DNA from: Bacillota bacterium
Lineage (GTDB): Bacteria > Bacillota > Clostridia > Peptostreptococcales > Anaerovoracaceae
NCBI GenBank assembly: GCA_041844735.1
Contig: JBGZBP010000008.1
Location: 14,133-78,132, forward strand
Reading direction: 5' to 3'
Length of the DNA stretch: 64,000 nt
Shown here: one piece after another, positions 12,786-41,625 of the stretch
How positions within the stretch are numbered: the first letter of the stretch is position 1
Layout of the letters: each line of letters begins with the position of its first letter
Position numbers and translations under genes: made by a program
Notes under the pieces: model-generated
Told to the model about the DNA's origin: nothing
Database searches by the model: none
The model's input: only the letters and a program-made list of their open reading frames with translations

Positions 12786-15386
12786 ATGAAAAACCTTGTT
12801 GCAGGGATTTTTGCTCATGTTGATGCCGGCAAAACCACTTTGAGTGAAAGCATTTTGTTTGAAGCAGGCATTATAAAAGAGATGGGGAGAGTTGATAAAA
12901 AGAATACGTTTTTTGACACCTATGAACAGGAGAGAGCCAGAGGAATAACTATTTTTTCAAAACAGGCGACACTTAAAATAGGTGATTTTAACGTTACGCT
13001 CATTGATACACCCGGACATATTGATTTTTCATCCGAATTATGCAAGGTTATTTCTGTAATAGACTACGGTATTATCGTGATAAGCGGAACGGAAAAGCTG
13101 AAACCCCATACATTTACCATATGGAATCTACTCAAGGAAAATAATATTCCTGTTTTTATATTTGTAAACAAGATGGATTATACTCACGTGGATAGGGATT
13201 TAATTCTCATGGAACTTTCGGACAGACTCGATGAAAGAATAGTTGATTTCAGCGGATTCGATTCCGGGAACAGACATGATTTACTGGAGCATATTGCCAT
13301 GACTGATGAACTTGCGATGGACGAATTTATATCGGAAGGAACCTTGAAGGATGAAAGAATAAAAAAGTTGGTGGCAAAGAGGAAAGTATTTCCGTGTTAC
13401 TTCGGATCAGCTTTGAAATACCAAGGCATAACGACTTTCTTTGAAGGTATGGGCACTTTTTTTCAAGAAAAAAAGCCTGAAAAAAACTTTGGAGGAAGAA
13501 TTTTTAAAGTATCTCATGATGACAAGGGAAACAGACTTACCCATATGAAAATTACGGGAGGAAGTCTGAAAGTAAAGGATTTAATAAAATGTTCTTCATG
13601 GGAGGGCAAAGCGAATGAAATCAGGATATATTCGGGTGAAAAATATGTAAATGCAACGGAAGTTCGACAAGGAGAGGTGTGTGCAATTACAGGTCTTAAA
13701 GATTCAATGCCGGGAGACGGTGTAGGATTTGAAAACAAGTATCAAACTTCCGGAATTGAGCCGGTACTTTCATACAGAATGATTTTTCCGGGCGGTGAGA
13801 CTGCAAAAGAAATGTTCCCGCAACTACAAATAATCAAGGATGACTTTTCAGAGATAGATATGAGATACAGGGAGGAATCCGATGAAATAACTGTGAAGCT
13901 TATGGGTGAGGTGCAGATAGAAGTTCTTGAACAAATTATCTCAAAAAAACTGGGGGTAGGTGTGAAATTCGGGGAAGGCAGGGTTCTGTACAAAGAGACT
14001 ATAGACAATACAGTAGAGGGAGTCGGACACTTTGAGCCTTTGCGTCACTATGCCGAGGTGCATGTTATTATACGAAGAGGGGAACGTGGCTCAGGTATTG
14101 TTTTTAAAAATAAGAGCAAAGACGATATGCCGGCTAAAAATCGACAAAATTTGATAATGAATGTGCTTGAGACCTATGAGCATAAGGGAGTTTTGACAGG
14201 TGGAAAGCTTACGGATGTAGAAATAATTTTGGTTGCAGGAGCAGCGAATGTGAAGCACACGGATGGCGGAGATTTCAGAGAGGCGACGATAAGAGCTGTA
14301 AGGCAGGGATTGATGGAAGCGGAGAGCAGACTGCTTGAGCCTTATTATGAATATGAACTTGAGTTGCCGAGAAGATTGACAGGCAAGGCGGCAAACGATA
14401 TAGAAAAAATGTCAGGCAGCATGGATATCCAAGATTTGAATGATGATTTTGTTTTGATTAAGGGCAGGGCACCCATGATAAATATTCATAACTACCGAAG
14501 AGAGGTTAACAGCTATTCCTCGGGAGAGGGAAGGCTTACGACGGCTATGGCGGGGTATGACATATGCCACAATGAAGATGAAGTTTTATCCGAAGTAGCA
14601 TACAACCCTGAAGCCGACATGGAGAATCCTACGGGATCCATTTTCTGTACACACGGTGCGGGATATTATGTGCCTTATGACCAAGTGAAAGAGAAGATGC
14701 ATATAAGAAGTTTTTTATCCGAGTACATGGAAACCGGGAATGAAATTATAAACAAGTCTGCAAGAGAATTTCAGCATGCTGATGACAGAGACAATATTGA
14801 TCCGGATGAAGTAGAAAGAATTTTTTCCAAAACATTTTTCGCCAATTCTGCGGAGAAGACAAAGTGGAGAAGCAAACAGGCTATAGAAAGGGAAAAATAT
14901 AAAAACTTTTTAGCGGACAAGCCCTCAGTACAGAAAAACAGGGTGCAAAAAGATAAGATAATGATTGTTGACGGATATAATGTGATACATGATTGGCAGG
15001 AACTTTCAAAACTTTTGCCGGGAATTATTGATGGAGCCAGAAGCAAGCTCTTGGAGATATTGTCGAATTACAGTTATTCTATAGATGAAAAAATAATAGT
15101 GGTGTTTGATGCATACAGGGTCAAAAACGCCGGTGAGAAAATTGAAAAATATGATGAAATGGATGTTGTCTTTACAAAAGAGGGTGAAACGGCTGATCAA
15201 TATATTGAAAAGTTTGCATATGAAAATCGTAGCAAGTATGATATCAGAGTAGTTACATCTGATGCCATGCAGCAGCTGAGCACGAGAGTAAGCGGTGCAT
15301 ATAATATTTCTTCACGTGAGTTGTTGGAACTGGTAGAGGCGGCAGCTAAGGAATTGAGAATTAAGCATAAAATAGTTGTGGAATAA
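12786..15386 (+). CDS. Fusion protein: Tet(M)/EF-G-like five-domain translational GTPase (about aa 1-640), K/E-rich linker, and YacP/Rae1-like NYN (PIN-like) ribonuclease domain (about aa 722-866)
   Basis: G1 AHVDAGKTT, RGITI, G3 DTPGH, G4 NKMD. The C-terminus IVDGYNVIHDW...VVFDAY...ETADQYIEKF...VVTSDAMQQ is colinear with B. subtilis YacP/Rae1. The ORF is uninterrupted. Confidence 0.85.
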   Translation: MKNLVAGIFAHVDAGKTTLSESILFEAGIIKEMGRVDKKNTFFDTYEQERARGITIFSKQATLKIGDFNVTLIDTPGHIDFSSELCKVISVIDYGIIVISGTEKLKPHTFTIWNLLKENNIPVFIFVNKMDYTHVDRDLILMELSDRLDERIVDFSGFDSGNRHDLLEHIAMTDELAMDEFISEGTLKDERIKKLVAKRKVFPCYFGSALKYQGITTFFEGMGTFFQEKKPEKNFGGRIFKVSHDDKGNRLTHMKITGGSLKVKDLIKCSSWEGKANEIRIYSGEKYVNATEVRQGEVCAITGLKDSMPGDGVGFENKYQTSGIEPVLSYRMIFPGGETAKEMFPQLQIIKDDFSEIDMRYREESDEITVKLMGEVQIEVLEQIISKKLGVGVKFGEGRVLYKETIDNTVEGVGHFEPLRHYAEVHVIIRRGERGSGIVFKNKSKDDMPAKNRQNLIMNVLETYEHKGVLTGGKLTDVEIILVAGAANVKHTDGGDFREATIRAVRQGLMEAESRLLEPYYEYELELPRRLTGKAANDIEKMSGSMDIQDLNDDFVLIKGRAPMINIHNYRREVNSYSSGEGRLTTAMAGYDICHNEDEVLSEVAYNPEADMENPTGSIFCTHGAGYYVPYDQVKEKMHIRSFLSEYMETGNEIINKSAREFQHADDRDNIDPDEVERIFSKTFFANSAEKTKWRSKQAIEREKYKNFLADKPSVQKNRVQKDKIMIVDGYNVIHDWQELSKLLPGIIDGARSKLLEILSNYSYSIDEKIIVVFDAYRVKNAGEKIEKYDEMDVVFTKEGETADQYIEKFAYENRSKYDIRVVTSDAMQQLSTRVSGAYNISSRELLELVEAAAKELRIKHKIVVE

Positions 15387-16359: not shown

Positions 16360-17064
16360 ATGGAACCGAAATATAGACGAGTTTTATTGAAGATAAGCGG
16401 AGAGGCACTTGCAGGTGAAAACAAATTCGGACTCAGCGAGGATATGCTTAAGGAAGTGGCGTTGCAGGTAAAGGATTTATTTGAGCTTGGCATAGAAGTG
16501 GCAGTTGTAGTTGGTGGAGGAAACTTCTGGAGAGGCAGAACGAGCAAAAGTATGGATCGAGCCACAGCGGACTATATGGGTATGATGGCTACAGTGATCA
16601 ATTCTTTGGCTTTACAGGAAGCTTTTGAAGCAAACGGAATACCTACAAGAGTACAGACAGCTATAGAAATGCGACAAATTGCAGAACCATATATCAGAAG
16701 ACGAGCTATAAGACATCTTGAAAAAAGAACAGTAGTAATATTCGGTGCCGGAACAGGAAATCCATTCTTCTCAACAGATACAACAGCGGCACTCAGAGCG
16801 GCGGAAATCGAAGCGGATGTTATATTATTAGCGAAGAACATTGATGCTGTATATTCCGATGACCCTAATGTGAACCCGAATGCAGAGAGATATTCTCACC
16901 TGACGCATGGCGAAGTTTTACAGAAGGGACTTAAAGTTATGGATTCAACAGCTGCTTCGCTTTGTATGGATAACAATATTCCGATTCATGTGTTTGGACT
17001 TTCCGAGAAGGGTAATGTACTTAAGGCTGTTATGGGTGAATCAATAGGAACTATTATAAAATAA
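16360..17064 (+). CDS. pyrH: UMP kinase
   Basis: [13 protein letters not shown]...[11 protein letters not shown], 234 aa. Confidence 0.95.
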
Positions 17065-17095
17065 GATACAGGATATAATTAGGAGGAAAAACGAT

Positions 17096-17650
17096 ATGTT
17101 TATAGATGACCTTAAATTTGAAGATAAAATGAAAAAAACCATAGAGGTATTAAAGAATGAGCTTAATACAGTGAGGGCGGGAAGAGCGAACCCGGCACTT
17201 TTGGATAAGGTTATGGTTGAGTACTACGGTACGCCGACGCCTTTAAAAAACTTGTCAAACATTTCCGTTCCTGAACCTAGAACGCTGATGATTACTCCTT
17301 TTGATGCGGGTTCAATTTCTGATATAGAAAAAGCGATTAACGTAGCGGAATTAGGTGTTAACCCGTCAAATGACGGAAAGGTAATAAGAATTTCCATACC
17401 TGCATTGACAGAGGAACGAAGAAAAGAACTCACTAAGAATGTTAAAAAAATCGGAGAAGATGCAAAAGTTGCAATTAGAAATGAGAGAAGAGAAGCAAAT
17501 GACAAGCTTAAAAAAGAGGAAAAATCCGGTGAGTTTTCAGAGGACGATTTAAAGAAGGAACTGGATGCAGTTCAAAAAATAACAGATAAATATACAAAAG
17601 AAATAGAAAGTCTTGTAGCAGCTAAAGAAGCGGAAATCATGGAGGTTTAA
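17096..17650 (+). CDS. frr: Ribosome recycling factor
   Basis: Canonical Frr sequence (LNTVRAGRANPALLD...IPALTEERRKEL), 184 aa. Confidence 0.95.
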   Translation: MFIDDLKFEDKMKKTIEVLKNELNTVRAGRANPALLDKVMVEYYGTPTPLKNLSNISVPEPRTLMITPFDAGSISDIEKAINVAELGVNPSNDGKVIRISIPALTEERRKELTKNVKKIGEDAKVAIRNERREANDKLKKEEKSGEFSEDDLKKELDAVQKITDKYTKEIESLVAAKEAEIMEV

Positions 17651-17653
17651 TCG

Positions 17654-17845
17654 TTGCTGAATAAAGAAAGACTACTCGGAATGAAGATTGAAAATGCTGT
17701 GGCCCTTCTAAATATAGAGGGGCTTGATTTTAATATTAAAGAAACATCTGCAGCACGTCCGAGGCAGGAATTATCTGAAGAGAAAATAGTGATAAGAGTT
17801 AAAGAAACGGCAGGAAAAGTGGAATTGACCTGCTGCAGGGTTTGA
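17654..17845 (+). CDS. Hypothetical 63-aa protein (TTG start)
   Basis: The ORF fills the frr-uppS gap. GGAGG lies 8 nt upstream of the TTG. I recognise no family. Confidence 0.35.
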   Translation: MLNKERLLGMKIENAVALLNIEGLDFNIKETSAARPRQELSEEKIVIRVKETAGKVELTCCRV

Positions 17846-17849
17846 AGAT

Positions 17850-18572
17850 ATGGAAGAAATTTTATTAAACAAAGAGCTGTTGCCGACACATGTGGCGATT
17901 ATTATGGACGGAAACGGGAGATGGGCACAGAAGCGGAAACTTCCAAGGCTGGCAGGACATAATGCAGGTATGCAGGCGATGACGGAAATCGTAAGAGCAT
18001 CCTCAAATATAGGCATAAAACATCTTACGGTATACGCTTTTTCAACTGAAAACTGGAAAAGGTCGGAGGAAGAAGTATCAGGTATTTTTAAACTCCTGAT
18101 AGTGTATGTTGAAAAGAAACTTAAAGAACTGTGCAAAGAGAATGTAAGGCTGACGGTAATAGGGGATTATACAGCCTTGCCTGAGGCGGCAGTTAAAAGC
18201 TTAGAAAAGGCATTGGAAGACACTAAGAATAATACAGGACTTAATTTCAATATTGCCCTGAATTACGGGTCAAGGAATGAGATTCTTAGAGCTGCAAAAG
18301 ATATGGCAAGAGATATAATGGCGGGCAAACTTGATATTGATGCGGTGACTGAAGAAGATTTTTCCGACAGGATGTTTACAAAGGGTATGCCCGACCCGGA
18401 TTTGGTGATACGAACCAGCGGTGAAGAGAGATTGTCAAACTACCTGCTTTGGCAGTCAGCATACAGCGAGTTGGTATTTTCAGATGTTCTTTGGCCGGAT
18501 TTTACTGTCAGTGAATACAAGAAAATGCTTAAAGTATATGAATCTAGAAATAGAAGATTCGGCGGCAGATAG
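17850..18572 (+). CDS. uppS: Undecaprenyl-diphosphate synthase (isoprenyl transferase)
   Basis: HVAIIMDGNGRWA...RTSGEERLSNYLLWQ motifs. Confidence 0.95.
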   Translation: MEEILLNKELLPTHVAIIMDGNGRWAQKRKLPRLAGHNAGMQAMTEIVRASSNIGIKHLTVYAFSTENWKRSEEEVSGIFKLLIVYVEKKLKELCKENVRLTVIGDYTALPEAAVKSLEKALEDTKNNTGLNFNIALNYGSRNEILRAAKDMARDIMAGKLDIDAVTEEDFSDRMFTKGMPDPDLVIRTSGEERLSNYLLWQSAYSELVFSDVLWPDFTVSEYKKMLKVYESRNRRFGGR

Positions 18573-18581
18573 GAGGATAAG

Positions 18582-19367
18582 ATGAAAACAAGGATATTAT
18601 CAGGATTGTTGATGTTGCCATTACTGTTGGTAGTCTTTTTTGGAGGAAAGGTGATTTTAGCAGGATGTTTGATTATAGGATTAATGGGAATCCGTGAGTT
18701 TTTTAAGGTGTTTGAAACATCGGGAACAAAGGCATCTTACCCTATAGCATGTGTTATGACGGCGGCGCTTTATGCAATCAATTTGTTCACGGATGATTCC
18801 AAGTATTATGTTGTATGGGTATTCGTAACAGTGTTGGTAAGCCTGTTATATATGTTTGATATAGATAACAGGAAACCCGAAGATAGTATGCTTACAGCAT
18901 TCGGACTGTTTTATGTCGTTTTTTTCTCTTTTCATGTCGCATTGGTGGAGCAGGCGGATAAGTACGGAATACTGGTATGGCTAATATTTTTAACGGCATT
19001 CGGAACGGATGTTATGGCATATTTTTCGGGATTTTTATTCGGAAAGCATAAATTATGTCCGAAAATAAGTCCTAAAAAGACTATAGAAGGAGCGATAGGC
19101 GGAGTTTTAGGCAGCGTTGTTTTGTCGGGGATATTCGGATATTTTTTTGCACGGGAAGTTTTTATTCATTGCCTTCTGATAGGTATGCTTGGAGGAATCA
19201 TATCGCAGTTCGGTGATCTTACCGCATCGATATTCAAGAGAAAACTCGGAATAAAAGATTATGGAAATTTAATTCCGGGACATGGAGGTATAATGGACAG
19301 ATTTGACAGTGTACTGTTCACTGCACCTTTGGTATATTATTATATAAGATTCCTGATAATGAATTGA
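18582..19367 (+). CDS. cdsA: Phosphatidate cytidylyltransferase
   Basis: Polytopic membrane protein with C-terminal SQFGDLTASIFKR...PGHGGIMDRFDS signature. Confidence 0.9.
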   Translation: MKTRILSGLLMLPLLLVVFFGGKVILAGCLIIGLMGIREFFKVFETSGTKASYPIACVMTAALYAINLFTDDSKYYVVWVFVTVLVSLLYMFDIDNRKPEDSMLTAFGLFYVVFFSFHVALVEQADKYGILVWLIFLTAFGTDVMAYFSGFLFGKHKLCPKISPKKTIEGAIGGVLGSVVLSGIFGYFFAREVFIHCLLIGMLGGIISQFGDLTASIFKRKLGIKDYGNLIPGHGGIMDRFDSVLFTAPLVYYYIRFLIMN

Positions 19368-19442
19368 CAGCAAATATATATAACAACAATAGATAGAGGA
19401 ATAATTTGATTTTCTGTGGGATTGAGAGGGAAATTACACAGC

Positions 19443-20579
19443 ATGAAAAAAATAGGTATTTTGGGATCTACAGGTTCTATCGGGACACAGGGTCTTGATA
19501 TTGTAAGAGAAAACCCGGATTTATTCAAAGTTACGGCATTGGCTTGCAATGAAAATATAGAATTGCTTCAAAAGCAAATAACGGAGTTTTCACCGGAAGC
19601 AGTGTGTGTTTTTAATGAAGCAAGAGCTATGGAACTCAGCAGAAACTTGCCGAGACAAGAAATTTTAGCAGGATATCAGGGACTCTGTGATATAGCAGGA
19701 GCAGTGGATTATGATTTGCTTTTAAACGGTGTCATGGGAATGATAGGACTTGAACCCACATATCGAGCTATAGATTCGGGTAAAGATGTTGCTCTGGCAA
19801 ACAAGGAAACATTGGTGGCAGCAGGTGAGATAATAATGAATGCTGCAAGATATAAGGGTGTAAACATATATCCCGTGGATAGTGAACACAGTGCTATATT
19901 TCAATGTTTGGCGGGCGAAAAAAAGGAATCCGTTAAAAATGTAATAATTACTGCATCGGGAGGCCCTTTTTTGGGTATGAAAAAGAAGCAGTTGGATAAT
20001 GTTACTGCATCGGATGCTTTAAAACACCCTAATTGGTCGATGGGAAAAAAAATCACTATAGATTCCGCAACACTAATGAACAAAGGTCTGGAGGTAATAG
20101 AGGCTAAATGGCTTTTTGATTTGGAACCGGACCGGATTAAAGTGGTGGTGCATCCTCAGAGTATTATACATTCAATGGTGGAGTTCAAGGATAATGCCGT
20201 ATTGGCACAGATGGGAGTTCCTGATATGAAAGTGCCCATATCACTGGGGCTTTCAGGATATTCAAGAATAGAGAACAAGTCTGACAGTTTGGATTTGGTA
20301 AAGATAGGCGAGCTGACATTTTTACAGCCTGATATGGATACATTTCCATGCTTGCAGTATGCTTTTGATGCATTGAAAATAGGCGGAACTGCCACATGCA
20401 CATTGAACTCGGCAAATGAAGTTTTAGTATCAAAATTTTTAAAAGGGGAAATTAAATTCTTGGATATCCCGAAAGGGATAGAAAAGATAATGTCAGAATC
20501 AGAATTTATAAAAAATCCTTCTTTGGAGGAAATTCTGGAGCTGGATAAGGAAATAAGGGGGAGAATTTTAAAATGCTAA
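19443..20579 (+). CDS. dxr: 1-deoxy-D-xylulose-5-phosphate reductoisomerase
   Basis: MKKIGILGSTGSIGTQGLDIV N-terminus. The track's GTG at 19416 adds a non-conserved extension. Confidence 0.95.
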   Translation: MKKIGILGSTGSIGTQGLDIVRENPDLFKVTALACNENIELLQKQITEFSPEAVCVFNEARAMELSRNLPRQEILAGYQGLCDIAGAVDYDLLLNGVMGMIGLEPTYRAIDSGKDVALANKETLVAAGEIIMNAARYKGVNIYPVDSEHSAIFQCLAGEKKESVKNVIITASGGPFLGMKKKQLDNVTASDALKHPNWSMGKKITIDSATLMNKGLEVIEAKWLFDLEPDRIKVVVHPQSIIHSMVEFKDNAVLAQMGVPDMKVPISLGLSGYSRIENKSDSLDLVKIGELTFLQPDMDTFPCLQYAFDALKIGGTATCTLNSANEVLVSKFLKGEIKFLDIPKGIEKIMSESEFIKNPSLEEILELDKEIRGRILKC

Positions 20580-21580
20580 CAATTATTGCAGCTATATTGA
20601 TATTTTGTGTGCTTATATTCGTACATGAACTGGGTCACTTTATCGCAGCAAAGGCATGCGGGGTAGGTGTAATCGAGTTTTCGCTGGGAATGGGGCCGAG
20701 AATAATTCATTTTAAAGGTAAAGAGACGGAGTATTCTTTGAGGATACTTCCTATAGGCGGTTTTTGCAAGATGCTTGGAGAAGATGAGGAAAATCCGGAT
20801 CCTAAAGCGTTAAATAATAAAAAAGCTTGGCAAAGGGGAATCGTATTCGGTGCAGGGGCATTTATGAACCTTGTTACTGCTGTCGTTATTATGATAGCTT
20901 TGGTGATGGCTACGGGATTCCCATCTGATGCAAATGTCATAGGCGGCTTGCAAAAAGGTATGCCGGCAGCGGTTTCGGGCTTTAAAGAGGGAGATAAGAT
21001 AGTAAAAATAGACGGCAAACAAGTCGATACATGGAATGAAGTGACATCCACGATAGCGGCATCAGAGAACCGAGAATTATCAATAGTTGTAAATAGGGAC
21101 GGTAACGAAATCAACCTCACATGTGATGTAGAGAAGGATAAAAACGGAGACAGTAAAATAGGAATAATACCGGTAATGGAAAAAGACTATACCAAGTCGG
21201 TAGGTAAAGGATTTGTTGCAACATGGAATTTAGGCAAAAACATGATTGCGGTATTGGGAAAATTAGTTACAGGTGAGGTTTCTCCAAGAAATTTAACGGG
21301 GCCTGTAGGTATAGTTGTGATGGTTGGAGACAGCGTAAAGACCGGGATATCAAACATAGCATTTTTAACTGCATTGATAAGCTTGAACCTGGCAATATTT
21401 AATTTGCTTCCATTCCCGGCTTTGGATGGCGGCAGAATATTGTTTTTGATTATCAGAAGTATTACCAAAAAGGAAATACCGGACTCGGTAGAAGGTAAGA
21501 TACACATGGTAGGATTGCTGCTTTTGTTCGGATTAATGATAGTTGTTACCATACAGGATGTTTGGAGGTTTATCCTATGA
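20573..21580 (+). CDS. rseP: RIP metalloprotease RseP (site-2 protease with PDZ domain)
   Basis: HELGHF zinc motif, central PDZ (GFKEGDKIVKIDG), C-terminal NLLPFPALDGG. Confidence 0.9.
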   Translation: MLTIIAAILIFCVLIFVHELGHFIAAKACGVGVIEFSLGMGPRIIHFKGKETEYSLRILPIGGFCKMLGEDEENPDPKALNNKKAWQRGIVFGAGAFMNLVTAVVIMIALVMATGFPSDANVIGGLQKGMPAAVSGFKEGDKIVKIDGKQVDTWNEVTSTIAASENRELSIVVNRDGNEINLTCDVEKDKNGDSKIGIIPVMEKDYTKSVGKGFVATWNLGKNMIAVLGKLVTGEVSPRNLTGPVGIVVMVGDSVKTGISNIAFLTALISLNLAIFNLLPFPALDGGRILFLIIRSITKKEIPDSVEGKIHMVGLLLLFGLMIVVTIQDVWRFIL

Positions 21581-22659
21581 CGGTAAAGGTTATGGTGGGG
21601 GACGTTGCTATAGGCGGAGGAGCTCCTGTTTCAATACAGTCTATGTGTAATACGGATACAAGGGATGTAAAATCCACGTTACAGCAGATACAAAGATTGA
21701 ATGAAGCAGGCTGTGATATAGTGCGGCTTGCAGTGCCGGATAAGGAAGCGGCTGAGGCGATAGCGGAGATAAAGAAGCGCAGTCCTTTACCTATAGTTGC
21801 AGATATTCATTTCGACTATCGTTTGGCACTTTTGTCCTTGGATAACGGGGCTGATAAACTCCGTATAAATCCCGGAAACATAGGCGGCAAGGATAAACTG
21901 CTTGAAGTAGTGAACAAGGCTAAAGAAAAAAAAGTACCTATAAGAGTGGGTGTGAATGCGGGCTCATTGGAAAAAGCCTTGCTTGAAAAATATGGAGGCA
22001 TAACACCCGAAGCATTGTGTGAAAGTGCAGAAAACACTTTGGAATATATGTATGCTGCCGGATTTTATGATGTTGTCCTATCAATTAAAGCCTCTGATGT
22101 AAGGCTTAATTATGATAGCCACTTATTGATAAAAGAAAAATTGGATGTACCTCTTCACATAGGAATCACAGAAGCAGGAACAGGAAGCAGCGGAATCATT
22201 AAATCGGCAGTCGGGATAGGGGCACTTTTACTTAACGGCATAGGTGATACAATAAGGGTGTCGCTCACAGGGGATCCGGTGCAGGAAGTGCATACGGCGA
22301 AAGAAATATTGAGGTCCATAGGATTACAAGATAACTATATAAATTTGATTTCTTGCCCCACATGCGGAAGGTGTCAGATAGATTTAAAAAGAATTACCGA
22401 CGATGTGCAGGAGATGATAAGGAAAATTGAACCGGAAATTCAGAGAAGGAAGATCGGTAAAATAGATGTTGCGGTAATGGGTTGCTCGGTAAATGGTCCC
22501 GGAGAGGCTAAGAATGCTGATATAGGAATAGCAGGAGGCAAGAAAAACGGACTGCTTATAAGCAAAGGAGAGATAATAGCCAGGGTACCCGAGAAAGAAT
22601 TAAAGGAAGTACTCTATAAAGAGATTCAAAAAAGATATCTTGGAGAGATTGATGATTGA
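21577..22659 (+). CDS. ispG: 4-hydroxy-3-methylbut-2-en-1-yl diphosphate synthase
   Basis: GGGAPVSIQSMCNT..., CPTCGRC and GCSVNGPGE cluster ligands. ATGA overlap with the rseP stop. Confidence 0.95.
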   Translation: MTVKVMVGDVAIGGGAPVSIQSMCNTDTRDVKSTLQQIQRLNEAGCDIVRLAVPDKEAAEAIAEIKKRSPLPIVADIHFDYRLALLSLDNGADKLRINPGNIGGKDKLLEVVNKAKEKKVPIRVGVNAGSLEKALLEKYGGITPEALCESAENTLEYMYAAGFYDVVLSIKASDVRLNYDSHLLIKEKLDVPLHIGITEAGTGSSGIIKSAVGIGALLLNGIGDTIRVSLTGDPVQEVHTAKEILRSIGLQDNYINLISCPTCGRCQIDLKRITDDVQEMIRKIEPEIQRRKIGKIDVAVMGCSVNGPGEAKNADIGIAGGKKNGLLISKGEIIARVPEKELKEVLYKEIQKRYLGEIDD

Positions 22660-25600
22660 GATTTTTGAAAAAAATATTCCATGGGAAAAAATAAACATTG
22701 ATAAAAGTCAGTGCAAAATAGAAATTTTAAAAGGTACCGTTTCCAGAGAAACAGGTGCTTTTACATTGCATGTCCTTTTGGATTTCATCATACCATATGA
22801 AAACCATTTGGACATAATAGATGAGCTTAAGAAAAAAATAGGCAGTGAAACATCTGTTTATATTGAGTATGTGTATGAAAAAGGTGTACGGAATATACAC
22901 GCCGTTCCTGAATTGTTGACACCGTATGCAATAAATGCCGTTTTCGATAAGGCGAGGTATATTGCCAGCAGCATTGATATTTCAGGGATATCCGTCGAGG
23001 ATAATAAGGTGTTGATACCTGTGCTGGGTAAAGCCGTCGAGGAAAATCTGAATGCAGGAGCGAAAAATTCAATCGAAAAATACATTAAAGAAAAAACAGG
23101 AACAGAGGTTGATGTAATATTTGTAAATAATCAAAAGTCGTGCGAAGACAGAAAAGAGCAGGCAAGAGCTGTTGACAACAAGGAAATGGCAGAGATGGAA
23201 AGAGAGATTTCCAAGCAGAAGAAAATTAATGTTTCCAACAAGAATAAGGCTAATTCAGATAAATCGGACGGTAAGAAATATAGCAGAGGTGAGACGGAAG
23301 TTGTAGGTAATTTAATTTATGGTAAAAAAATTTCCATTCAGCCGGTTGCACTGTCAGGCATAGGAAAAGACAGCGGGAATGTTGCAGTCGAGGGAACTGT
23401 ATTTAAACTTGACAGTAGGGATACAAAAAATGGAAATAAGATTGCGATGATTTATATTACAGACGAAAACACATCGATATACATAAAATGTTTTATGTCG
23501 CATAAAAAATGGGAAGATTTAAATGATCATATACAGATAGGTTCCAATGTTAGAATTCAGGGAGAGGCGGAGTTCGATCCATTTGAAAGATGCGTTGCAA
23601 TAAACGGAAGAGCTATAGAAAAGACAGCGGAGAAAAAAGTAAGACAGGACAATTCCGAGATTAAAAGAGTAGAACTTCATACGCACACTAAGATGAGTGC
23701 CATGGACGGACTGAGCGAGCCGAAAGAAATGGTGAAATTGGCAGCAGAATTTGGACATAAGGCGGTGGCGGTCACGGATCACGGTGTGGTGCAGGCATTT
23801 CCGGACTGTGCAGGTGCCGCAAAAAAAGCCGGGATTAAGATGATATATGGCGTGGAAGGGTATTTAGTTGAGGAAATATCGGATGCTAAGGGCAATATAG
23901 ACTATAAATCAAACAAGACGAATCACATTATACTTTTGGCAAAAGATAATGTGGGGCTTAAAAATTTGTATAAAATAGTTTCACTTTCTCATATAAAATA
24001 TTTTTACAGAAAACCGAGAATAACAAGAGCATTACTTGAAGAATACAGAGAGGGTATCATAGTAGGCGGAGCTTGTGAGGCGGGTGAAATATATCAGGCT
24101 TTTTTGAGAGGTAAAACCGAAGCCGAGAAATTATCAATAGCCGAACGTTATGATTATTTTGAAATACAGCCACTATGCAATAATAAATTTCTTATAGATA
24201 ACGGTTCGGTTGCTTCCGAAGAAGAACTGAAAAATATAAACAAGGAAATAATTGAATTTGGTAAAAAATTGGGCAAGCTTACAGTGGCGACATGCGATGC
24301 ACACTATTTGGAGGAAAAGCACGACATATACAGGACGATATTGCAGGCGGGTCAGGGCTATCAAGATATTGAGGGTAATAAGGGACTATATTTCAGAACC
24401 ACGGAAGAGATGCTCAGTGAGTTTGAGTATTTAGGAGAAGATTTGGCATATGAGGTAGTAGTAAAGAATACCAATATAATCGCAGACATGATTGAAGAGA
24501 TTAAGCCGGTACCTGACGGAAAGTTTCCTCCAAAGATAGAAGGAGCGGACGAGAGACTGAGAGATACCTGCATGAAAAGAGTACATGCCATATACGGTGA
24601 AACTTTACCGGATATAGTAAAAGAAAGGCTTGATAAGGAATTAAACTCCATCATAAGCAACGGATATGCGGTGATGTATGTTTCAGCAGAAAAATTGGTG
24701 CAAAAATCCATAAAGGACGGATATTTGGTCGGGTCAAGAGGATCCGTGGGATCATCATTTGCAGCCACGATGGGAGGGATTACAGAAGTTAATCCTTTAC
24801 CTGCTCATTATGTTTGTCCGGATTGCTGCCATTCGGAGTTTCCTGCCGGATATGATTGCGGTGTTGATATGCCGGACAAAAATTGCCCGATTTGCGGCTC
24901 CAAATATAAAAAAGACGGATTTAATATACCGTTTGAAGTCTTCTTGGGCTTTGAGGGTGATAAAGAGCCGGATATAGATTTGAACTTTGCAGGTGAATAC
25001 CAGCCGGTGGCACATAGGTATGTAGAAGAAATGTTCGGTAAGGACAATGTTTTTAGAGCCGGAACTATAGGAACCATCGCACAGAAGACAGCGTTCGGAT
25101 TTGTAGCGAAGTACTGTGAGGAGTCGAATCGTGTACTTAACAGATTTGAAATGGAAAGGATAGCGGGATGTTGTGTGGGTGTAAGGAGAACAACGGGACA
25201 GCATCCGGGGGGCATAATAATAGTTCCGGACGGACATGAGATTTATGAATTCTGCCCTATACAAAGACCTGCAAATGACAGCAGCACGGATATTATTACC
25301 ACACATTTTGATTATCATTCTATAGATCAAAATCTTTTAAAACTGGATATTCTGGGGCACGACGTGCCGTCCATGATAAGACATTTACAGGATCTTACCG
25401 ATATTGATCCATTAAGTGTTCCGTTGAGTGATGATAGGGTGACGAGCATATTCAACGGCATTTCAGGATTGGATATCAAGGATAAAGACTATAAATTCAA
25501 GCATGGTAGTTACGGAATACCCGAATTCGGTACTAAGTTTGTAAGACAGATGCTGGATGATACCAAACCTCAAAATTTTGCGGATTTAATCAGAATATCG

Positions 25601-26389
25601 GGGTTTTCACACGGGACGGATGTGTGGCTTAACAATGCTCAGGAATTTTTGAAAAACGAAACGGCTACCATGAAGGAAGTTATTTCTACGAGGGATGATA
25701 TAATGCTTTACTTAATTGATAAGCATGTTCCGAACAAGCAAGCATTTAAGATAATGGAGTCCGTGAGAAAGGGAAAGGGGCTTACCGAAGAACAGGAGGC
25801 CGAGATGAGATCCCATGATGTTCCGGAGTGGTACATAGAGTCATGCAAAAGGATTCAATACATGTTTCCGAAAGCTCATGCGGTTGCTTACGTAATGATG
25901 GCTTACAGAATAGCCTATTATAAAGTTTACTATCCTGTGGAGTTTTATGCGGTTATATTTACAACCAAGATTGCATCCTTTGATACGGAAACTATTTTGA
26001 AAGGTCAAAAAGCGGTGGAAGATAAACTCTATGAGTTGGAAAATTATCCGGAAAAACTGACGCAAAAGCAGGTTGATCAGGTGGTTGTATATGAACTTGC
26101 ATATGAAATGTATGCGAGGGGATTTGAGTTTATGCCTCCTGACATAGACATATCCGAGGCTATGAGATTCACAAAAAGGGACGGAAAAGTTCTGCTGCCT
26201 CTGGGAGCATTGGAGGGAGTCGGCGAAAATGCAGCTAAAGCCATAAAGGAGGAATTAAACAAGAGAGAGTTTTGCTCCGTGGAAGATATGAGAATAAGGT
26301 GCAAGCTTAACAAAAATGCCATAGAGGCTCTGATGGAGAGCAATGCGGCAGGAGGATTGCCGACTACAAACCAGATAAGTATGTTTTAG
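22652..26389 (+). CDS. polC: PolC-type DNA polymerase III alpha subunit lacking the internal DEDDh 3'-5' exonuclease domain (about 1245 aa)
   Basis: OB fold. PHP motifs (ELHTHTKMSAMDG, VTDHG, GVEGY, NHIILL, CDAHY). GSRGSVGSSFAATM, Zn module CPDCCHSEF...CPICG, PGGIIIVP, LKLDILGHD, KAHAVAYV. Only about 15 aa lie where the exonuclease normally sits. Confidence 0.9.
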   Translation: MIEIFEKNIPWEKINIDKSQCKIEILKGTVSRETGAFTLHVLLDFIIPYENHLDIIDELKKKIGSETSVYIEYVYEKGVRNIHAVPELLTPYAINAVFDKARYIASSIDISGISVEDNKVLIPVLGKAVEENLNAGAKNSIEKYIKEKTGTEVDVIFVNNQKSCEDRKEQARAVDNKEMAEMEREISKQKKINVSNKNKANSDKSDGKKYSRGETEVVGNLIYGKKISIQPVALSGIGKDSGNVAVEGTVFKLDSRDTKNGNKIAMIYITDENTSIYIKCFMSHKKWEDLNDHIQIGSNVRIQGEAEFDPFERCVAINGRAIEKTAEKKVRQDNSEIKRVELHTHTKMSAMDGLSEPKEMVKLAAEFGHKAVAVTDHGVVQAFPDCAGAAKKAGIKMIYGVEGYLVEEISDAKGNIDYKSNKTNHIILLAKDNVGLKNLYKIVSLSHIKYFYRKPRITRALLEEYREGIIVGGACEAGEIYQAFLRGKTEAEKLSIAERYDYFEIQPLCNNKFLIDNGSVASEEELKNINKEIIEFGKKLGKLTVATCDAHYLEEKHDIYRTILQAGQGYQDIEGNKGLYFRTTEEMLSEFEYLGEDLAYEVVVKNTNIIADMIEEIKPVPDGKFPPKIEGADERLRDTCMKRVHAIYGETLPDIVKERLDKELNSIISNGYAVMYVSAEKLVQKSIKDGYLVGSRGSVGSSFAATMGGITEVNPLPAHYVCPDCCHSEFPAGYDCGVDMPDKNCPICGSKYKKDGFNIPFEVFLGFEGDKEPDIDLNFAGEYQPVAHRYVEEMFGKDNVFRAGTIGTIAQKTAFGFVAKYCEESNRVLNRFEMERIAGCCVGVRRTTGQHPGGIIIVPDGHEIYEFCPIQRPANDSSTDIITTHFDYHSIDQNLLKLDILGHDVPSMIRHLQDLTDIDPLSVPLSDDRVTSIFNGISGLDIKDKDYKFKHGSYGIPEFGTKFVRQMLDDTKPQNFADLIRISGFSHGTDVWLNNAQEFLKNETATMKEVISTRDDIMLYLIDKHVPNKQAFKIMESVRKGKGLTEEQEAEMRSHDVPEWYIESCKRIQYMFPKAHAVAYVMMAYRIAYYKVYYPVEFYAVIFTTKIASFDTETILKGQKAVEDKLYELENYPEKLTQKQVDQVVVYELAYEMYARGFEFMPPDIDISEAMRFTKRDGKVLLPLGALEGVGENAAKAIKEELNKREFCSVEDMRIRCKLNKNAIEALMESNAAGGLPTTNQISMF

Positions 26390-26452: not shown

Positions 26453-26467
26453 TGATTATTATTGTTA
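26453..26467. promoter_or_regulatory. Fur/PerR-like box candidate (TGATTATTATTGTTA)
   Basis: Matches 11 of the 14 defined positions of the TGATAATNATTATCA consensus. It lies between the putative promoter and the SOR start codon. Confidence 0.25.
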
Positions 26468-26497
26468 AATATAATATGTGAAAGAGAGGAAAGTATC

Positions 26498-26881
26498 ATG
26501 AAAGAACCTAAATTTTTTATTTGTAAACACTGTGGAAACATTATAGGAATGGTAGTAGATAAAGGTGTTCCTATGGTTTGTTGTGGCGAGAAAATGCATG
26601 AGTTGGTGCCTAACACTGAAGATGCGGCAACAGAAAAGCATGTACCTGTAGTTTCACAGGAAGGCAATTTGGTTAAAGTAAGTGTAGGTAGCGTGGAACA
26701 TCCTATGATGGACGAACATTATATTCAATATATTTACTTGCTAACTAAGCAGGGTGGACAGAGAAAACCGTTGAAGCCGGGTGAAAAACCGGAGGTACAG
26801 TTCGCACTTGCTCCCGGAGATGAAGCGGTGGCAGCTTACGAATATTGCAACCTTCACGGATTGTGGAAGAAAGAAATATAA
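26498..26881 (+). CDS. dfx: Desulfoferrodoxin-type (2Fe) superoxide reductase
   Basis: N-terminal centre I CxxC...CC (CKHCGN...VCCGE). Centre II ligands EKHVPV, HPMMDEH, CNLHG. ATG at 26498 follows AGAGAGGA. Confidence 0.85.
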   Translation: MKEPKFFICKHCGNIIGMVVDKGVPMVCCGEKMHELVPNTEDAATEKHVPVVSQEGNLVKVSVGSVEHPMMDEHYIQYIYLLTKQGGQRKPLKPGEKPEVQFALAPGDEAVAAYEYCNLHGLWKKEI

Positions 26882-26936
26882 TCGATTTAAACATTTTAGT
26901 TGAGAAGTCGAATTGTATTAATATAATTTAATCTGC

Positions 26937-26983
26937 AAAAAATCTCCCGCTTGGGTTATCCAAGTGGGAGATTTTTGATTTTT
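26937..26983. terminator. Strong bidirectional Rho-independent terminator
   Basis: AAAAAATCTCCCGCTTGG-GTTAT-CCAAGTGGGAGATTTTT is a 12-bp GC-rich stem (one G-U) with A-run and T-run flanks. It overlaps the track's TTG start at 26951. Confidence 0.75.
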
Positions 26984-27037
26984 CAACGTGTTTGTGGTAA
27001 AATACTAGAAAATATATTTTTGATCCGGCAGGTGAAT

Positions 27038-27727
27038 ATGGAGAGTATTTCAGACAGAACAGAGCTGCTTATAGGCAGTGAATCAATAGAAAAAATAAAG
27101 AATTTAAAAGTGCTGATTTTCGGGGTAGGCGGTGTCGGATCTTATGTTGTCGAGACACTTTGTCGACTCGGTGTAGGTAAAATAGGGATATGTGATAAAG
27201 ATAAGGTTTCCATAAGCAATATAAACAGGCAGATACCTGCGCTTCACAGCACGGTGGGTATGGCAAAAGTGGATGTAATGGAAAAAAGGATGAAGGATAT
27301 AAATCCCGATATAATCGTGGAAAAGTATGAATTTTTTTATGGGGAAGATTCATCCTGTGATATAGAATTGAAGGAATATGATTATATAGTTGATGCAATA
27401 GACAGTATAAAATCAAAGCTTTTTCTTATAAAAAAAGCTGATGAATACGGGATACGAATAATATCATCTATGGGTGCGGGAAATAAATTCAATCCCGGAG
27501 GCTTTATGGTAGATGATATATACAATACACAGGTAGACCCTATTGCAAAAATAATGAGACGAGAACTTAAGAAAATGGGGATTAAAAGCTTGAAGGTTGT
27601 TTATTCAAGGGAAAACCCTGTAGGAAACGATTCCGGGGTGATAGGAAGCATGCCGTTTGTACCGGGAGCATGCGGACTCGTTATAGCCGGTGAGGTTTTT
27701 AAGGAACTCGTGCTGGAGAAGGAGTAG
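27038..27727 (+). CDS. tcdA: tRNA threonylcarbamoyladenosine dehydratase (ThiF/MoeB-fold, TcdA/CsdL-like)
   Basis: IFGVGGVGSYVVETLCRLGVGKIGICDKDKVSISNINRQ. The start is reassigned to MESISD because the upstream extension lies inside the terminator hairpin. Confidence 0.75.
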   Translation: MESISDRTELLIGSESIEKIKNLKVLIFGVGGVGSYVVETLCRLGVGKIGICDKDKVSISNINRQIPALHSTVGMAKVDVMEKRMKDINPDIIVEKYEFFYGEDSSCDIELKEYDYIVDAIDSIKSKLFLIKKADEYGIRIISSMGAGNKFNPGGFMVDDIYNTQVDPIAKIMRRELKKMGIKSLKVVYSRENPVGNDSGVIGSMPFVPGACGLVIAGEVFKELVLEKE

Positions 27728-27732
27728 AAGTT

Positions 27733-28662
27733 ATGAGTAAAATATATGAAAATATCACGGAATTGGTTGGAAATACACCGCTATTTCGTGCAAAAAATTT
27801 AGAAAAAAAATTGGGATTGGATGCTAAGATTTTCTTGAAATTGGAGTACTTTAATCCGACAGGAAGCGTTAAGGACAGGGCAGCTAGAGAAATTATTGAG
27901 GATGCGGAGAAAAAGGGCAGATTGACCGCAGGTGCAACGATTATAGAGCCGACAAGCGGAAATACGGGAATAGGTCTTGCTGCAATAGGCGTTGCAAAGG
28001 GATATGAAGTTGTGATAGTAATGCCGGATACTATGTCAAAGGAGAGAATAAAGATTATGTCTGCACTTGGTGCAAAGGTGATATTGACAGACGGCAAATT
28101 GGGCATGAAGGGTGCTATTGCAAAGGCTGAGGAGATGAACGCCGAAATCGACGGAAGCATAGTTGCAGGTCAATTTACAAATCAGGCGAATCCGGATGCA
28201 CATTACCGTACAACAGGCCCCGAGATATATGAGGATATGGACGGAAAAGTCGATGTTTTGGTAGCAGGTATCGGTACAGGAGGAACGGTTACAGGTACAG
28301 GTAAATACTTAAAGGAGAAAATTAAAGAGTTAAAGATAGTTGCAGTAGAGCCTGAGAATTCCCCGGTGCTTTCAAAAGGAACTGCGGGAAAGCATGCTAT
28401 TCAAGGTATAGGGGCAGGATTCATTCCGGAAATTCTTGATACAAAAGTCTTTGATGAGATTTTTACTGTCAGCGATGAAGCAGCTGTAGACACGGCAAGG
28501 GAACTGGCGGCTACGGAAGGTATTTTAACAGGAATATCGTCGGGGGCGGCACTTAATGCGGCACTTGCGGAGGCAGGAAAGAAAGAGAATGCAGGCAAAA
28601 ATATAGTTTGCGTATTGCCTGATTCGGCAGATAGATATTTCTCTACTGCGCTTTTTGAGTAA
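27733..28662 (+). CDS. cysK: Cysteine synthase A (O-acetylserine sulfhydrylase)
   Basis: PLP-lysine motif NPTGSVKDRAA, GTGGTVTG loop, 309 aa. Confidence 0.9.
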   Translation: MSKIYENITELVGNTPLFRAKNLEKKLGLDAKIFLKLEYFNPTGSVKDRAAREIIEDAEKKGRLTAGATIIEPTSGNTGIGLAAIGVAKGYEVVIVMPDTMSKERIKIMSALGAKVILTDGKLGMKGAIAKAEEMNAEIDGSIVAGQFTNQANPDAHYRTTGPEIYEDMDGKVDVLVAGIGTGGTVTGTGKYLKEKIKELKIVAVEPENSPVLSKGTAGKHAIQGIGAGFIPEILDTKVFDEIFTVSDEAAVDTARELAATEGILTGISSGAALNAALAEAGKKENAGKNIVCVLPDSADRYFSTALFE

Positions 28663-28698: not shown

Positions 28699-29406
28699 AT
28701 GTACAGAATAATAATCACATCCGGCGGTACAAGAGAACCGATAGATGATGTACGAGCGATTACGAACGGATCTACGGGTACCCTCGGCAGCAAAATTGCA
28801 GACAGATTTTTATCGGATTTTGAATCCGAAATATCGGAGTTGGTATACATTCATGGGATAGGAGCAAAAATACCGTCCGTTAAGAGTATGAAACTACGTA
28901 AAGTAGAGATAGAAAGTGCTTTAGATTTGCTTGAAACACTTAAACTTGAGATGAATAAAAAAACCGACATTGTAATACAGGCGATGGCGGTAAGCGATTA
29001 TAGAGTGGACAGCATATTGAAAAAACATGAGGATGGTTTTGTTAAGATTGATAATCAAAAAAAGATAAGTTCGGAAATAGAAGAGATGGCTGTAGTGCTG
29101 AAAAAGAATCCTAAAGTGATATCGGAGATAAAAAAAATCAGTCCGGGAACTGCCCTTGTAGGATTTAAGTTGCTGAGCCATGTTGCGAGAGAAGAACTTT
29201 TCAGAGTTGCATTAGAAATCGGAACTAAAAATGACTGTGACTTTGTTTTTGCAAATGATTTAAGAGATATAGACGGAAATAAACACATCGGATTCCTTAT
29301 GGACAGAGAAGGAAATCATATGGAATATCACAGCAAAGATGAAATTGCACAGGGGATATCACAGGAATGTATGAATCTTTTGAGGAGAAAAAATGAAGGA
29401 AAATAA
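28699..29406 (+). CDS. coaB: Phosphopantothenate-cysteine ligase (stand-alone CoaB)
   Basis: ITSGGTREPIDDVRAITNGSTGTLG and AMAVSDY motifs. Length is 235 aa. Confidence 0.8.
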   Translation: MYRIIITSGGTREPIDDVRAITNGSTGTLGSKIADRFLSDFESEISELVYIHGIGAKIPSVKSMKLRKVEIESALDLLETLKLEMNKKTDIVIQAMAVSDYRVDSILKKHEDGFVKIDNQKKISSEIEEMAVVLKKNPKVISEIKKISPGTALVGFKLLSHVAREELFRVALEIGTKNDCDFVFANDLRDIDGNKHIGFLMDREGNHMEYHSKDEIAQGISQECMNLLRRKNEGK

Positions 29407-29950
29407 ACAGATAATACTGGGTGTTACGGGCAGTATTTCATGCTATAAGGCATGCGATATTGCGAATCAGCTTACAAAACAGGGGCACAAGGTAGATGTA
29501 ATAATGACAAAGTCGGCACAGGAATTTGTCACAGCTTTGACGTTTCAGACATTAACAAAAAGAAAGGTGCATGTTGACATGTTTGAAGAATACGAGCCTG
29601 CGAAAGTTGAACACATATCTTTGGCAAAAGGAGCGGATTTGATGGTTATAGCACCCGCTACAGCAAATATTATAGCAAAACTGGCAAATGGAATTGCGGA
29701 TGACATGCTTTCATCAGTAGCTTTGGCTTGGGGACAGAAGCCTACAATAATATGCCCTGCTATGAACACCGCCATGTACGAAAATACTATTACACAGGAG
29801 AATATAGACAGGCTGAAAAAACGTGGAGTGAGATTTGTCGATCCTAAAGAAACATTATTGGCATGCGGTGATGTAGGAAAAGGCGGTCTTGCAGATATAG
29901 ATGTGATTTTGGCAGCAATAGACGATGCCCCGGAGGGAAAAAATGAGTAG
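29393..29950 (+). CDS. coaC: Phosphopantothenoylcysteine decarboxylase (stand-alone flavoprotein CoaC)
   Basis: ILGVTGSISCYKA...APATANIIAKLANGIADD...PAMN motifs. Confidence 0.85.
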   Translation: MKENKQIILGVTGSISCYKACDIANQLTKQGHKVDVIMTKSAQEFVTALTFQTLTKRKVHVDMFEEYEPAKVEHISLAKGADLMVIAPATANIIAKLANGIADDMLSSVALAWGQKPTIICPAMNTAMYENTITQENIDRLKKRGVRFVDPKETLLACGDVGKGGLADIDVILAAIDDAPEGKNE

Positions 29951-40271: not shown

Positions 40272-40340
40272 AAAAGACATCCGGTCAATTTGTTCTGCTA
40301 AAAGAGCAACAAATAGGGATGTCCTTTTATTTTTATTTTT
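40272..40340. terminator. Convergent (bidirectional) terminator between gpsA and the minus-strand antiporter gene
   Basis: GACATCC (40276-40282) pairs with GGATGTC (40317-40323), enclosing a smaller hairpin. A-rich on the 5' side and T-run (CTTTTATTTTTATTTTTT) on the 3' side. Confidence 0.5.
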
Positions 40341-41625
40341 TGTTTAAAGATTCAGTTCGCCTGAATGCCATAAACAGTACTGCAGATATGAACATCAAAA
40401 TCGGATAATACAGGTTAGGTATGATATCAAACGGTGTCAATTTGACCAATGTCGCTGCGGAAAGCAGCTGTGCACCGTATGGGATGAGCCCCTGACCGAC
40501 AGAAGCGAAAATATCCAATATGGAAGCAACTCTTTTTGAATCCAATTTAAATTCGTCTCCTATTTCTTTTGCGATAGGACCTGCCATAACTATGGCAACT
40601 GTATTATTTGCCGTGCATATATCAACTAATAGAGTCAATATGGCAATTCCGAATTCAGCACCCTTTTTTCCTTTGATACGTTTTCTGATAAAGTTGATAA
40701 TGAGTTCAATACCTCCATTTTCTTTGACAAGAGATACGATACAAGCTACTATTAGCGATATAAGGGCAATTTCAAAAAGACCGTTCATACCTTCGCCGAT
40801 ATGTGAAAAACTTTCTATGAGTGTAAACTTGCCATAAGTAACTCCTACTATAGTGGAAAGAACTATTCCAAGTACCAGCACCAAGAATACGTTAAGCCCT
40901 AGAAGGGCAGTAATTAAAACAAATAAATATGGAATAATCTGCGGAAGATGATACGTCAAATCTCCGTCGACACCATCTGTGGATATTCCCTTGGTACGAA
41001 AATAAAATAAAAAAACAGTTATTATTGCGGCAGGTAAGACAATAAGGAAATTCTGTCTGAATTTATCTTTCATTTCACAACCTTGTGTTCTTACAGCTGC
41101 AATAGTAGTATCTGAAATCATGGATAGGTTATCTCCGAACATTGCTCCCGAAACTACAGCTCCTATGCATATAGCGATGGAAAACTCGGTTTTCTCGGCA
41201 ACTCCCATGGCAATAGGTGCAAGAGCGGCAATAGTGCCCATTGAAGTTCCCATTGAAATAGATATAAAGCATCCTATTATGAACAGACCGACAACCATCA
41301 TATTAGCAGGAATGATTGACAGTCCGAAGTTTACTGTGCTCGCAGCTCCGCCGGCAGCAGATACGACACCCGAGAAAGCTCCTGCTAAAAGGAATATCAG
41401 GACCATAGTTATGATGTTAACATCTCCTGCACCTTTAGATATGATTGCCAATTTTTCATTGAATGAAAGCTTTCTGTTCTGAAGCAAGCCGACAAGTAAA
41501 GCTGATAAAAAAGCGACAATTGCAGGCATACTGTAAAAATTGTTGCTGATAATACCAACTCCTGCAAATAATGCAAGAAAAACAAAAATCGGCAACAAAG
41601 ATGAAATTCGATATTTTTTCTCCAT
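40333..41625 (-). CDS. Na+/H+ antiporter, NhaC-like polytopic membrane protein
   Basis: About 430 aa, 11-12 TM, composition and length like the NhaC family. Start taken at MEKKYRISS, preceded by GAGGAG. This is the only minus-strand gene in the window. Confidence 0.6.
   Translation of the reverse strand: MEKKYRISSLLPIFVFLALFAGVGIISNNFYSMPAIVAFLSALLVGLLQNRKLSFNEKLAIISKGAGDVNIITMVLIFLLAGAFSGVVSAAGGAASTVNFGLSIIPANMMVVGLFIIGCFISISMGTSMGTIAALAPIAMGVAEKTEFSIAICIGAVVSGAMFGDNLSMISDTTIAAVRTQGCEMKDKFRQNFLIVLPAAIITVFLFYFRTKGISTDGVDGDLTYHLPQIIPYLFVLITALLGLNVFLVLVLGIVLSTIVGVTYGKFTLIESFSHIGEGMNGLFEIALISLIVACIVSLVKENGGIELIINFIRKRIKGKKGAEFGIAILTLLVDICTANNTVAIVMAGPIAKEIGDEFKLDSKRVASILDIFASVGQGLIPYGAQLLSAATLVKLTPFDIIPNLYYPILMFISAVLFMAFRRTESLNKK

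Follow-up and report, generated by a model that had tools for sequence, protein, structure and literature searches.

The polC gene and its domain organization

The 64,000-nucleotide stretch of DNA analysed here (hereafter the window; Bacillota bacterium, family Anaerovoracaceae, GenBank assembly GCA_041844735.1, contig JBGZBP010000008.1, positions 14,133 to 78,132 of the forward strand) contains a polC gene, which encodes a PolC-type DNA polymerase III alpha subunit. The DEDDh exonuclease (Exo) is cleanly deleted from the PHP domain of this protein, and a short loop is found in its place. In Firmicutes, PolC serves as the essential replicase and is targeted by drugs such as ibezapolstat, and textbooks assign its fidelity to the inserted DEDDh exonuclease.

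The gene opens with ATG at position 22652 and is an uninterrupted open reading frame (ORF); the mechanical ORF call opens at TTG 22640. A 100% identical protein of 1245 amino acids (aa), P0001, is present in public databases. The following features were located in the gene:

22652–26389, + strand: polC, PolC-type DNA polymerase III alpha subunit without the DEDDh insertion, 1245 aa plus stop (ORF, NCBIfam, alignment with structure 3f2b, AlphaFold2 model)
22652–23344, + strand: PolC N-terminal domain, aa 1–231 (hhalign)
23381–23584, + strand: OB fold, aa 244–311 (Pfam PF01336, E = 1.4e-6, 28.6 bits vs. a cutoff of 27; beta-strands in the model)
23654–23875, + strand: N-terminal part of the PHP domain, aa 335–408, with ligands H343, H345, D352, H377, and E402 (Pfam PHP, E = 2.4e-35)
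23876–23920, + strand: 15-residue linker ISDAKGNIDYKSNKT, aa 409–423, at the canonical exonuclease site (junction alignment)
23921–24511, + strand: C-terminal part of the PHP domain, aa 424 to about 620, with ligands H425, C475, D549, and H551 (Pfam, structure alignment, ligand columns)
24554–25363, + strand: polymerase palm/thumb (Pfam PF07733, E = 4e-58)
24815–24907, + strand: Zn module CPDC...CPIC, inside the palm/thumb (motif search)
24968–24988 and 25340–25363, + strand: catalytic aspartates in PDIDLNF and KLDILGHD, respectively (motif search)
25367–25804, + strand: fingers domain, aa 906–1051 (Pfam PF17657, E = 4.5e-24)
26120–26356, + strand: tandem helix-hairpin-helix (HhH) domain, aa 1157–1235 (Pfam PF14579, HHH_6, E = 3.7e-13)
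26372–26386, + strand: C-terminal beta-clamp-binding motif QISMF, consensus QxxLF (sequence motif)

The protein scored well above the cutoffs of the NCBIfam PolC equivalog NF001688 (1478.9 vs. 873 bits) and the PolC model TIGR01405 (1343.5 vs. 1043 bits). The match to NF001688 came in two stretches, the second of which aligned residues 409–1245 with profile positions 599–1444. Pfam identified the OB, PHP (aa 341–497), DNA_pol3_alpha, finger, and HHH_6 domains. Residues 1–231 were matched by hhalign to the N-termini of PolC proteins from Bacilli (97.1% probability, E = 6.5e-11) and from exo-containing Clostridia (98.1% probability, E = 9.3e-14). The OB fold precedes the PHP domain, which is the domain order of PolC-type enzymes. 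The three catalytic aspartates of the Pol-beta-like palm and the four cysteines of the Zn module were invariant in the family alignment of 41 sequences. Within the clamp-binding motif, as defined previously (PMC12926913; PMC3919608), the glutamine alone was invariant, and the family consensus ends in QLSLF. The AlphaFold2 model of residues 226–1245 (mean predicted local distance difference test score, pLDDT, 86.1; predicted template modelling score, pTM, 0.75) superimposed on 3f2b with template modelling (TM) scores of 0.90/0.92.

The polymerase core, Zn module, HhH domain, clamp motif, OB fold, and N-terminal domain are all intact. This agrees with the original prediction, made from the sequence of this stretch, that every PolC module other than the exonuclease is preserved. 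Its mention of a C-terminal HhH/OB region has to be corrected, since the OB fold is N-terminal and the C-terminus consists of the HhH domain and QISMF. We regard the ORF as a functional PolC replicase and the orthologous copy of the gene; its architecture and orthology are near certain.

Absence of the exonuclease domain

The hallmark of canonical PolC, a DnaQ-like DEDDh exonuclease inserted in the PHP domain, is missing from the window PolC. The protein contained no Pfam match to RNase_T (PF00929), even at E ≤ 1, and no Exo I motif D-x-E-[TS]-[TSN]-G was found in it by a regular expression search. A hidden Markov model (HMM) was built from 26 PolC exonuclease domains. It retrieved the positive control, the exo-containing polC of Sinanaerobacter sp. 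ZZT-01 (L057; CP141728.1, 10001–14365), with a score of 6e-92, but revealed no DEDDh remnant in the six frames of the whole window, where the best E value (4.3) was noise. These searches bear out the earlier claim of a PolC of about 1245 aa that lacks the DEDDh domain; a profile search for RNase_T/DEDDh in the ORF had been named there as a check.

The comparison with other PolC sequences and structures, also suggested earlier, gave the same picture. In an alignment of 141 sequences, the columns from Y404 to N424 held 20 residues in the window PolC vs. 209–214 in the exo-containing proteins. The match to the full-length PolC structure 9qpc was split: residues 234–451 aligned with chain positions 256–475 and residues 417–1245 with positions 633–1471, leaving a chain block of very roughly 150–200 residues unmatched. 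The match to 3f2b, a Geobacillus construct without Exo, was contiguous over residues 234–1245.

The junction DNA at 23876–23920 is clean, in frame, and free of ambiguous bases (N). The two PHP halves had been reported as separated by 15 residues at nucleotides (nt) 23872–23920, approximately, and this spacer can now be placed precisely at aa 409–423 and nt 23876–23920. In the AlphaFold2 model it forms a lower-confidence loop (pLDDT 62–69) that joins two PHP strands. The IDYK segment of the linker corresponds by homology to the residues that flank the exonuclease insertion on its C-terminal side in exo-containing relatives, so the domain was excised cleanly at its boundaries.

Homologues and synteny

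The deletion is common to 112 of the 120 best database homologues, which are 1073–1326 aa long; a survey of related taxa had been proposed together with the original prediction. The exo-less homologues come from isolates (Anaerovorax odorimutans, Sinanaerobacter chloroacetimidivorans, and Anoxybacterium hadale), metagenome-assembled genomes (MAGs), and read-level assemblies, and their linkers are homologous in sequence. Exo-less polC genes were found on several Mb-scale contigs, including complete genomes. With its closest relatives in the databases, the P0001 group shares only about 70% identity, and with named Anaerovoracaceae about 58%. The nearest named homologues belong to the Anaerovoracaceae and Clostridiales, and the synteny and composition of the window are clostridial.

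Conserved synteny was recognized upstream of polC:

16360–22659, + strand: pyrH-frr-uppS-cdsA-dxr-rseP-ispG (Pfam)

The stop codon of ispG overlaps the start of polC. The order pyrH to ispG also precedes exo-containing polC genes in L005, L006, and L008 as well as exo-less ones in L001 and L002. The MAG locus L001 holds a syntenic polC copy with 69% identity. Directly downstream of polC, rimP-nusA-infB is present both in the exo-containing Sinanaerobacter sp. ZZT-01 and in the exo-less Anoxybacterium hadale. Since this synteny is common to both types, exo-containing and exo-less PolC proteins are orthologues at one locus and not paralogues. Neither dnaE nor a second polC was found within the window.

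The rimP-nusA-ylxR-infB operon, usual downstream of polC, is absent from the window, and the same arrangement was seen in L001. The genes that follow polC, at 26462–28662, are a desulfoferrodoxin-like gene, a ThiF-family gene, and a gene for a PALP enzyme (cysK-like).

Comparison with known polymerases

The window PolC is a further example of a documented exo-less variant, known since 2013, and is not new in kind. The novelty implied by the original prediction was overstated, as this architecture was already described by Timinskas, Balvociute, Timinskas, and Venclovas (Nucleic Acids Research, 2014; PMC3919608). In their survey, 6% of PolC proteins lacked the Exo insertion. All of these were found in Clostridia and Negativicutes, with the exception of one from Thermotogae; they were paired with DnaE1 and were kept within the PolC group. 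Table S2 of that study lists 12 genomes in which a PolC of the organization NTD-OB-PHP-Pol3-HhH2 (NTD, N-terminal domain) is the sole PolC, alongside a complete DnaE1. The proteins in question share with the window PolC this domain order, an uninterrupted PHP domain with a conserved metal site, a clostridial host, and the normal polC locus; no difference in kind was found. The window adds another example and some comparative statistics and is not a discovery. Our literature search found no experimental paper on any exo-less PolC.

The Geobacillus kaustophilus crystallisation construct 3F2B/3F2C shares about 49% identity with the window PolC in the structural alignment. Both have the PHP barrel closed by a short linker; at the same point where the window PolC has the natural sequence ...KGNIDYKSNKTNH, the construct has the engineered linker ...RRLGSGSGPFH. 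Besides being artificial, the construct has no N-terminal domain either, and its parent Geobacillus enzyme has the Exo domain. The eighth PHP ligand is N in Geobacillus (GNVHY) and D in the window PolC (CDAHY).

Canonical PolC proteins (Bacillus subtilis, Staphylococcus aureus, and Enterococcus faecium 9QPC) share with the window PolC all modules except Exo, the syntenic locus, and the C-terminal clamp motif, but possess a DEDDh exonuclease of about 210 aa. In Bacilli, canonical PolC is paired with DnaE3, and its PHP site is often imperfect.

Like the window PolC, DnaE1 of Mycobacterium tuberculosis (PDB 5LEW, 7PU7) and the Pol III alpha subunit of Thermus have the full set of nine PHP ligands and no DEDDh domain in the polypeptide. 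These enzymes are of the DnaE type, with about 21% identity and a TM score of about 0.6 to the window PolC. Their OB fold is C-terminal and their clamp motif internal, unlike in the window PolC. The PHP exonuclease has been demonstrated for this type of enzyme, whereas for the window PolC we infer it.

Evolutionary loss of the exonuclease

At least three clearly separate exo-less lineages were present among the loci fetched for comparison. These are the Anaerovoracaceae-like family; L002, a Ruminococcus-like MAG with a 37-residue linker, which is sister to the exo-containing L008; and L003 from Anaerovibrio, a Negativicute, with a 12-residue linker. Among cluster representatives, exo-less PolC proteins with linkers of 9–59 residues fell into 17–26 groups in neighbour-joining (NJ) bootstraps, a count inflated by the poor deep resolution of NJ trees. 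Loss of Exo is clearly recurrent, apparently across Firmicutes.

The long linker of L002 (3633–7448; MAG ‘uncultured Ruminococcus sp.’ RUG14826) carries a C-E-N-C motif (..GEDVICENCAMLSMEELKRKP..) at the former exonuclease site.

Eight PolC proteins of the Anaerovoracaceae-like family contain Exo (P0041, P0054, P0062, P0064, P0069, P0079, P0096, and P0108). They were monophyletic and nested among the exo-less proteins in 300 of 300 NJ bootstraps, and the exo-less proteins were monophyletic in none of the 300. Judged from these trees, the nesting would imply either that the domain was lost several times independently or that it was regained; under a model without regain, the bootstraps gave 2–10 losses within the family. 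The eight exo-containing and most exo-less members have a two-residue indel in common, which neither the query's subgroup nor the outgroups share. Discrete shared-derived sites were balanced (2:2:1 and 2:3:2). The loss may have been reversed once inside this family.

Regain of Exo by recombination in the eight members was also considered, and no evidence for it was obtained. A sliding-window identity scan detected no foreign tract beside the insertion, although the domain alone may have been exchanged. The exonuclease domain differs from outgroups (0.46–0.51) to about the same degree as the flanking PHP segments do (0.49–0.58).

The PHP metal site and proofreading

An active PHP site has been defined as HHDHEH[C/H]DH in a survey published in 2026 (PMC12926913). 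The window PolC displays this full motif, with H343, H345, D352, H377, E402, H425, C475, D549, and H551 (HHDHEHCDH). The ligand set had been described as full-looking earlier, and all nine ligands could be located in the alignment. The motif HHDHEHCDH was complete in 115 of 115 close exo-less relatives in the 141-sequence alignment. PolC proteins from Bacilli often have N as the eighth ligand (HHDHEHCNH in L013, L016, and L025).

A search of a library of representatives at 50% identity yielded 2937 proteins at E ≤ 1e-30. The motif was counted in the 146 top sequences covering the PHP domain (145 representatives and the query), with 30 exo-less and 114 exo-containing representatives. The full motif was present in 26 of the 30 exo-less vs. 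69 of the 114 exo-containing representatives (Fisher p = 0.009) and in 22 of 23 when the exo-less set was limited to proteins of at least 1100 aa (p = 0.0006); this test ignores phylogeny and draws on a sample biased towards relatives of the query. PHP decay appears largely confined to PolC proteins that still carry the DEDDh domain. This would be expected if the PHP domain takes over proofreading once the DEDDh domain is gone.

Two published experimental results independently support a proofreading role of the PHP site, for PolC indirectly. Substitution C669Y of the PHP metal cysteine in PolC of C. thermocellum, which is equivalent to C475 of the window PolC, results in a mutator phenotype of about 30-fold (bioRxiv 10.1101/2021.07.30.454558). 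In M. tuberculosis, the PHP domain is the established proofreader of DnaE1 (PMC5636811). Three active proofreaders are the usual complement of Clostridia, namely the PHP domains of PolC and DnaE1 and the DnaQ domain of PolC (PMC12926913).

The best explanation of these data, in our view, is an orthologous PolC from which the DEDDh domain has been deleted and which would be proofread in cis by its own PHP site; we assign it a probability of about 0.6. PHP-based proofreading is the best-supported candidate mechanism, as far as can be judged from sequence. Of the two options offered by the original prediction, the PHP domain and an exonuclease acting in trans, the first agrees with the comparative results, and the suggestion was a reasonable one. 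The trinuclear metal site of the PHP domain would perform 3'-5' proofreading of the DNA made by the same polypeptide, by analogy with M. tuberculosis DnaE1 and Thermus Pol III. Loss of the DEDDh domain would be tolerable in clostridial replisomes with PolC and DnaE1, which normally possess the above set of proofreaders, and this redundancy may be why the module could be lost. The broader proposition, that in Clostridia with PolC and DnaE1 the PHP domain is the principal PolC proofreader and the DEDDh domain an expendable accessory discarded many times independently, is tentative, and we put it slightly below an even chance.

Several observations, in addition to the sampling bias of the motif count, weigh against proofreading by the PHP site. 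No exonuclease measurement for any exo-less PolC was found in the literature. Exo-containing clostridial PolC proteins keep the full PHP motif too (19 of 19), so that conservation alone is not specific to exonuclease loss. We found no functional-shift substitutions common to independent exo-less lineages; positions 274, 575, and 840 are family-specific only and not convergent among these lineages. Four exo-less representatives (P0213, P0238, P0256, and P0258) have degenerate PHP motifs. Also, the C. thermocellum mutator could act via destabilisation of the protein or via the adjacent Exo domain.

Of these four representatives, P0213 (1178 aa; a cluster of nine members, on contigs of up to 134 kb) has a 10-residue linker, and its PHP residues read HRSLENTDQ where the full motif is HHDHEHCDH. 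With the DEDDh insertion absent and the PHP site not intact, it has no recognisable proofreader. The other three proteins are shorter than P0213.

Alternative explanations

Timinskas et al. considered that exo-less PolC proteins might point to DnaE1 as the main replicase in Clostridia with both polymerases, and some Clostridia carry DnaE1 only (PMC3919608). According to this explanation, PolC would have no dedicated proofreader and a reduced or specialised role, while DnaE1, with its own PHP proofreader, would perform bulk replication; the fidelity of PolC-made DNA would rest on mismatch repair or simply be lower. The four degenerate PHP motifs are in line with such a role. It is, however, hard to reconcile with the strong purifying selection seen throughout the protein, in which several hundred columns are invariant across the 41 sequences, including the catalytic aspartates, the Zn module, and the glutamine of QxxLF. 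The gene also remains in its canonical locus, the PHP ligands do not vary among the 115 close relatives, and the window combines a very strong GC skew (0.19–0.35) with near-complete co-orientation of genes, as is typical of PolC-driven replication. We consider a reduced role unlikely.

Proofreading could also be provided in trans, by a separate DnaQ-like DEDDh exonuclease, encoded elsewhere in the genome, that associates with PolC or with the clamp and corrects the errors of PolC, in the manner of epsilon and DnaE in E. coli. In that case the PHP site would have a structural or other role, e.g. that of a pyrophosphatase. Stand-alone DnaQ homologues are common, with a mean of more than three per proteome, and the DnaQ domain of B. 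subtilis PolC can work in trans on DnaE3 (PMC12926913). The retention of the full PHP motif beside the Exo domain would also agree with another function of this motif. On the other hand, no DEDDh-like ORF was detected in any frame of the window, a 64-kb part of the genome, or less than about 10 kb from the exo-less polC in L001, L002, L003, and L059. The occurrence of PHP decay mostly in exo-containing PolC proteins argues that the PHP site matters more where Exo is absent. We know of no epsilon-type partner of PolC, and proofreading in trans seems to us rather improbable.

A last alternative is an artefact or decay, with some 600 bp collapsed or mis-assembled, or with polC a pseudogene. It is an a priori possibility only, of which the original prediction had raised mis-assembly; nothing was found in its favour, and it is rejected as scarcely conceivable given 1245 uninterrupted codons, the clean junction, the lack of an exonuclease remnant in any frame, the same architecture with a homologous linker in more than 110 homologues from independent isolates, MAGs, and read-level assemblies, and the 69%-identical syntenic copy in L001.

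As natural exo-less PolC proteins show, some clostridial lineages can dispense with the DEDDh module. Such proteins provide a clean system for asking if a PolC-type enzyme truly proofreads with its PHP domain, how the work is divided between PolC and DnaE1 in the clostridial replisome that has both, and what caused the repeated loss of DEDDh. If the PHP domain is indeed the principal proofreader, the window PolC would be a natural minimal PolC for a clean test of PHP proofreading.

Other features of the window

No tRNA genes and no Rfam matches were detected in the window by tRNA and Rfam scans. GC skew is uniform over the window, and nearly all genes lie on the + strand. The sole dip in skew (0.03) occurs at 40–42 kb, the site of the single minus-strand gene, which encodes an NhaC-like antiporter (40333–41658).

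A gene at 12786–15386 (+ strand) codes for a protein of 866 aa, in which a Tet(M)/EF-G-like translational GTPase is fused to a C-terminal NYN ribonuclease of the YacP/Rae1 type. The GTPase part (aa 7–591) scored 360 bits on the NCBIfam model tet_protect, far under the cutoff of 775, and the NYN domain (PF05991) was identified at aa 726–859 with E = 3.8e-42. By domain content, this protein would be a ribosome-binding GTPase with an A-site-type endoribonuclease.

CoaBC is split in the window. A DFP/CoaB-like gene (28699–29406) is followed by a separate, slightly overlapping flavoprotein/CoaC-like gene (29393–29950), an order that is the reverse of that in the usual CoaC-CoaB fusion.

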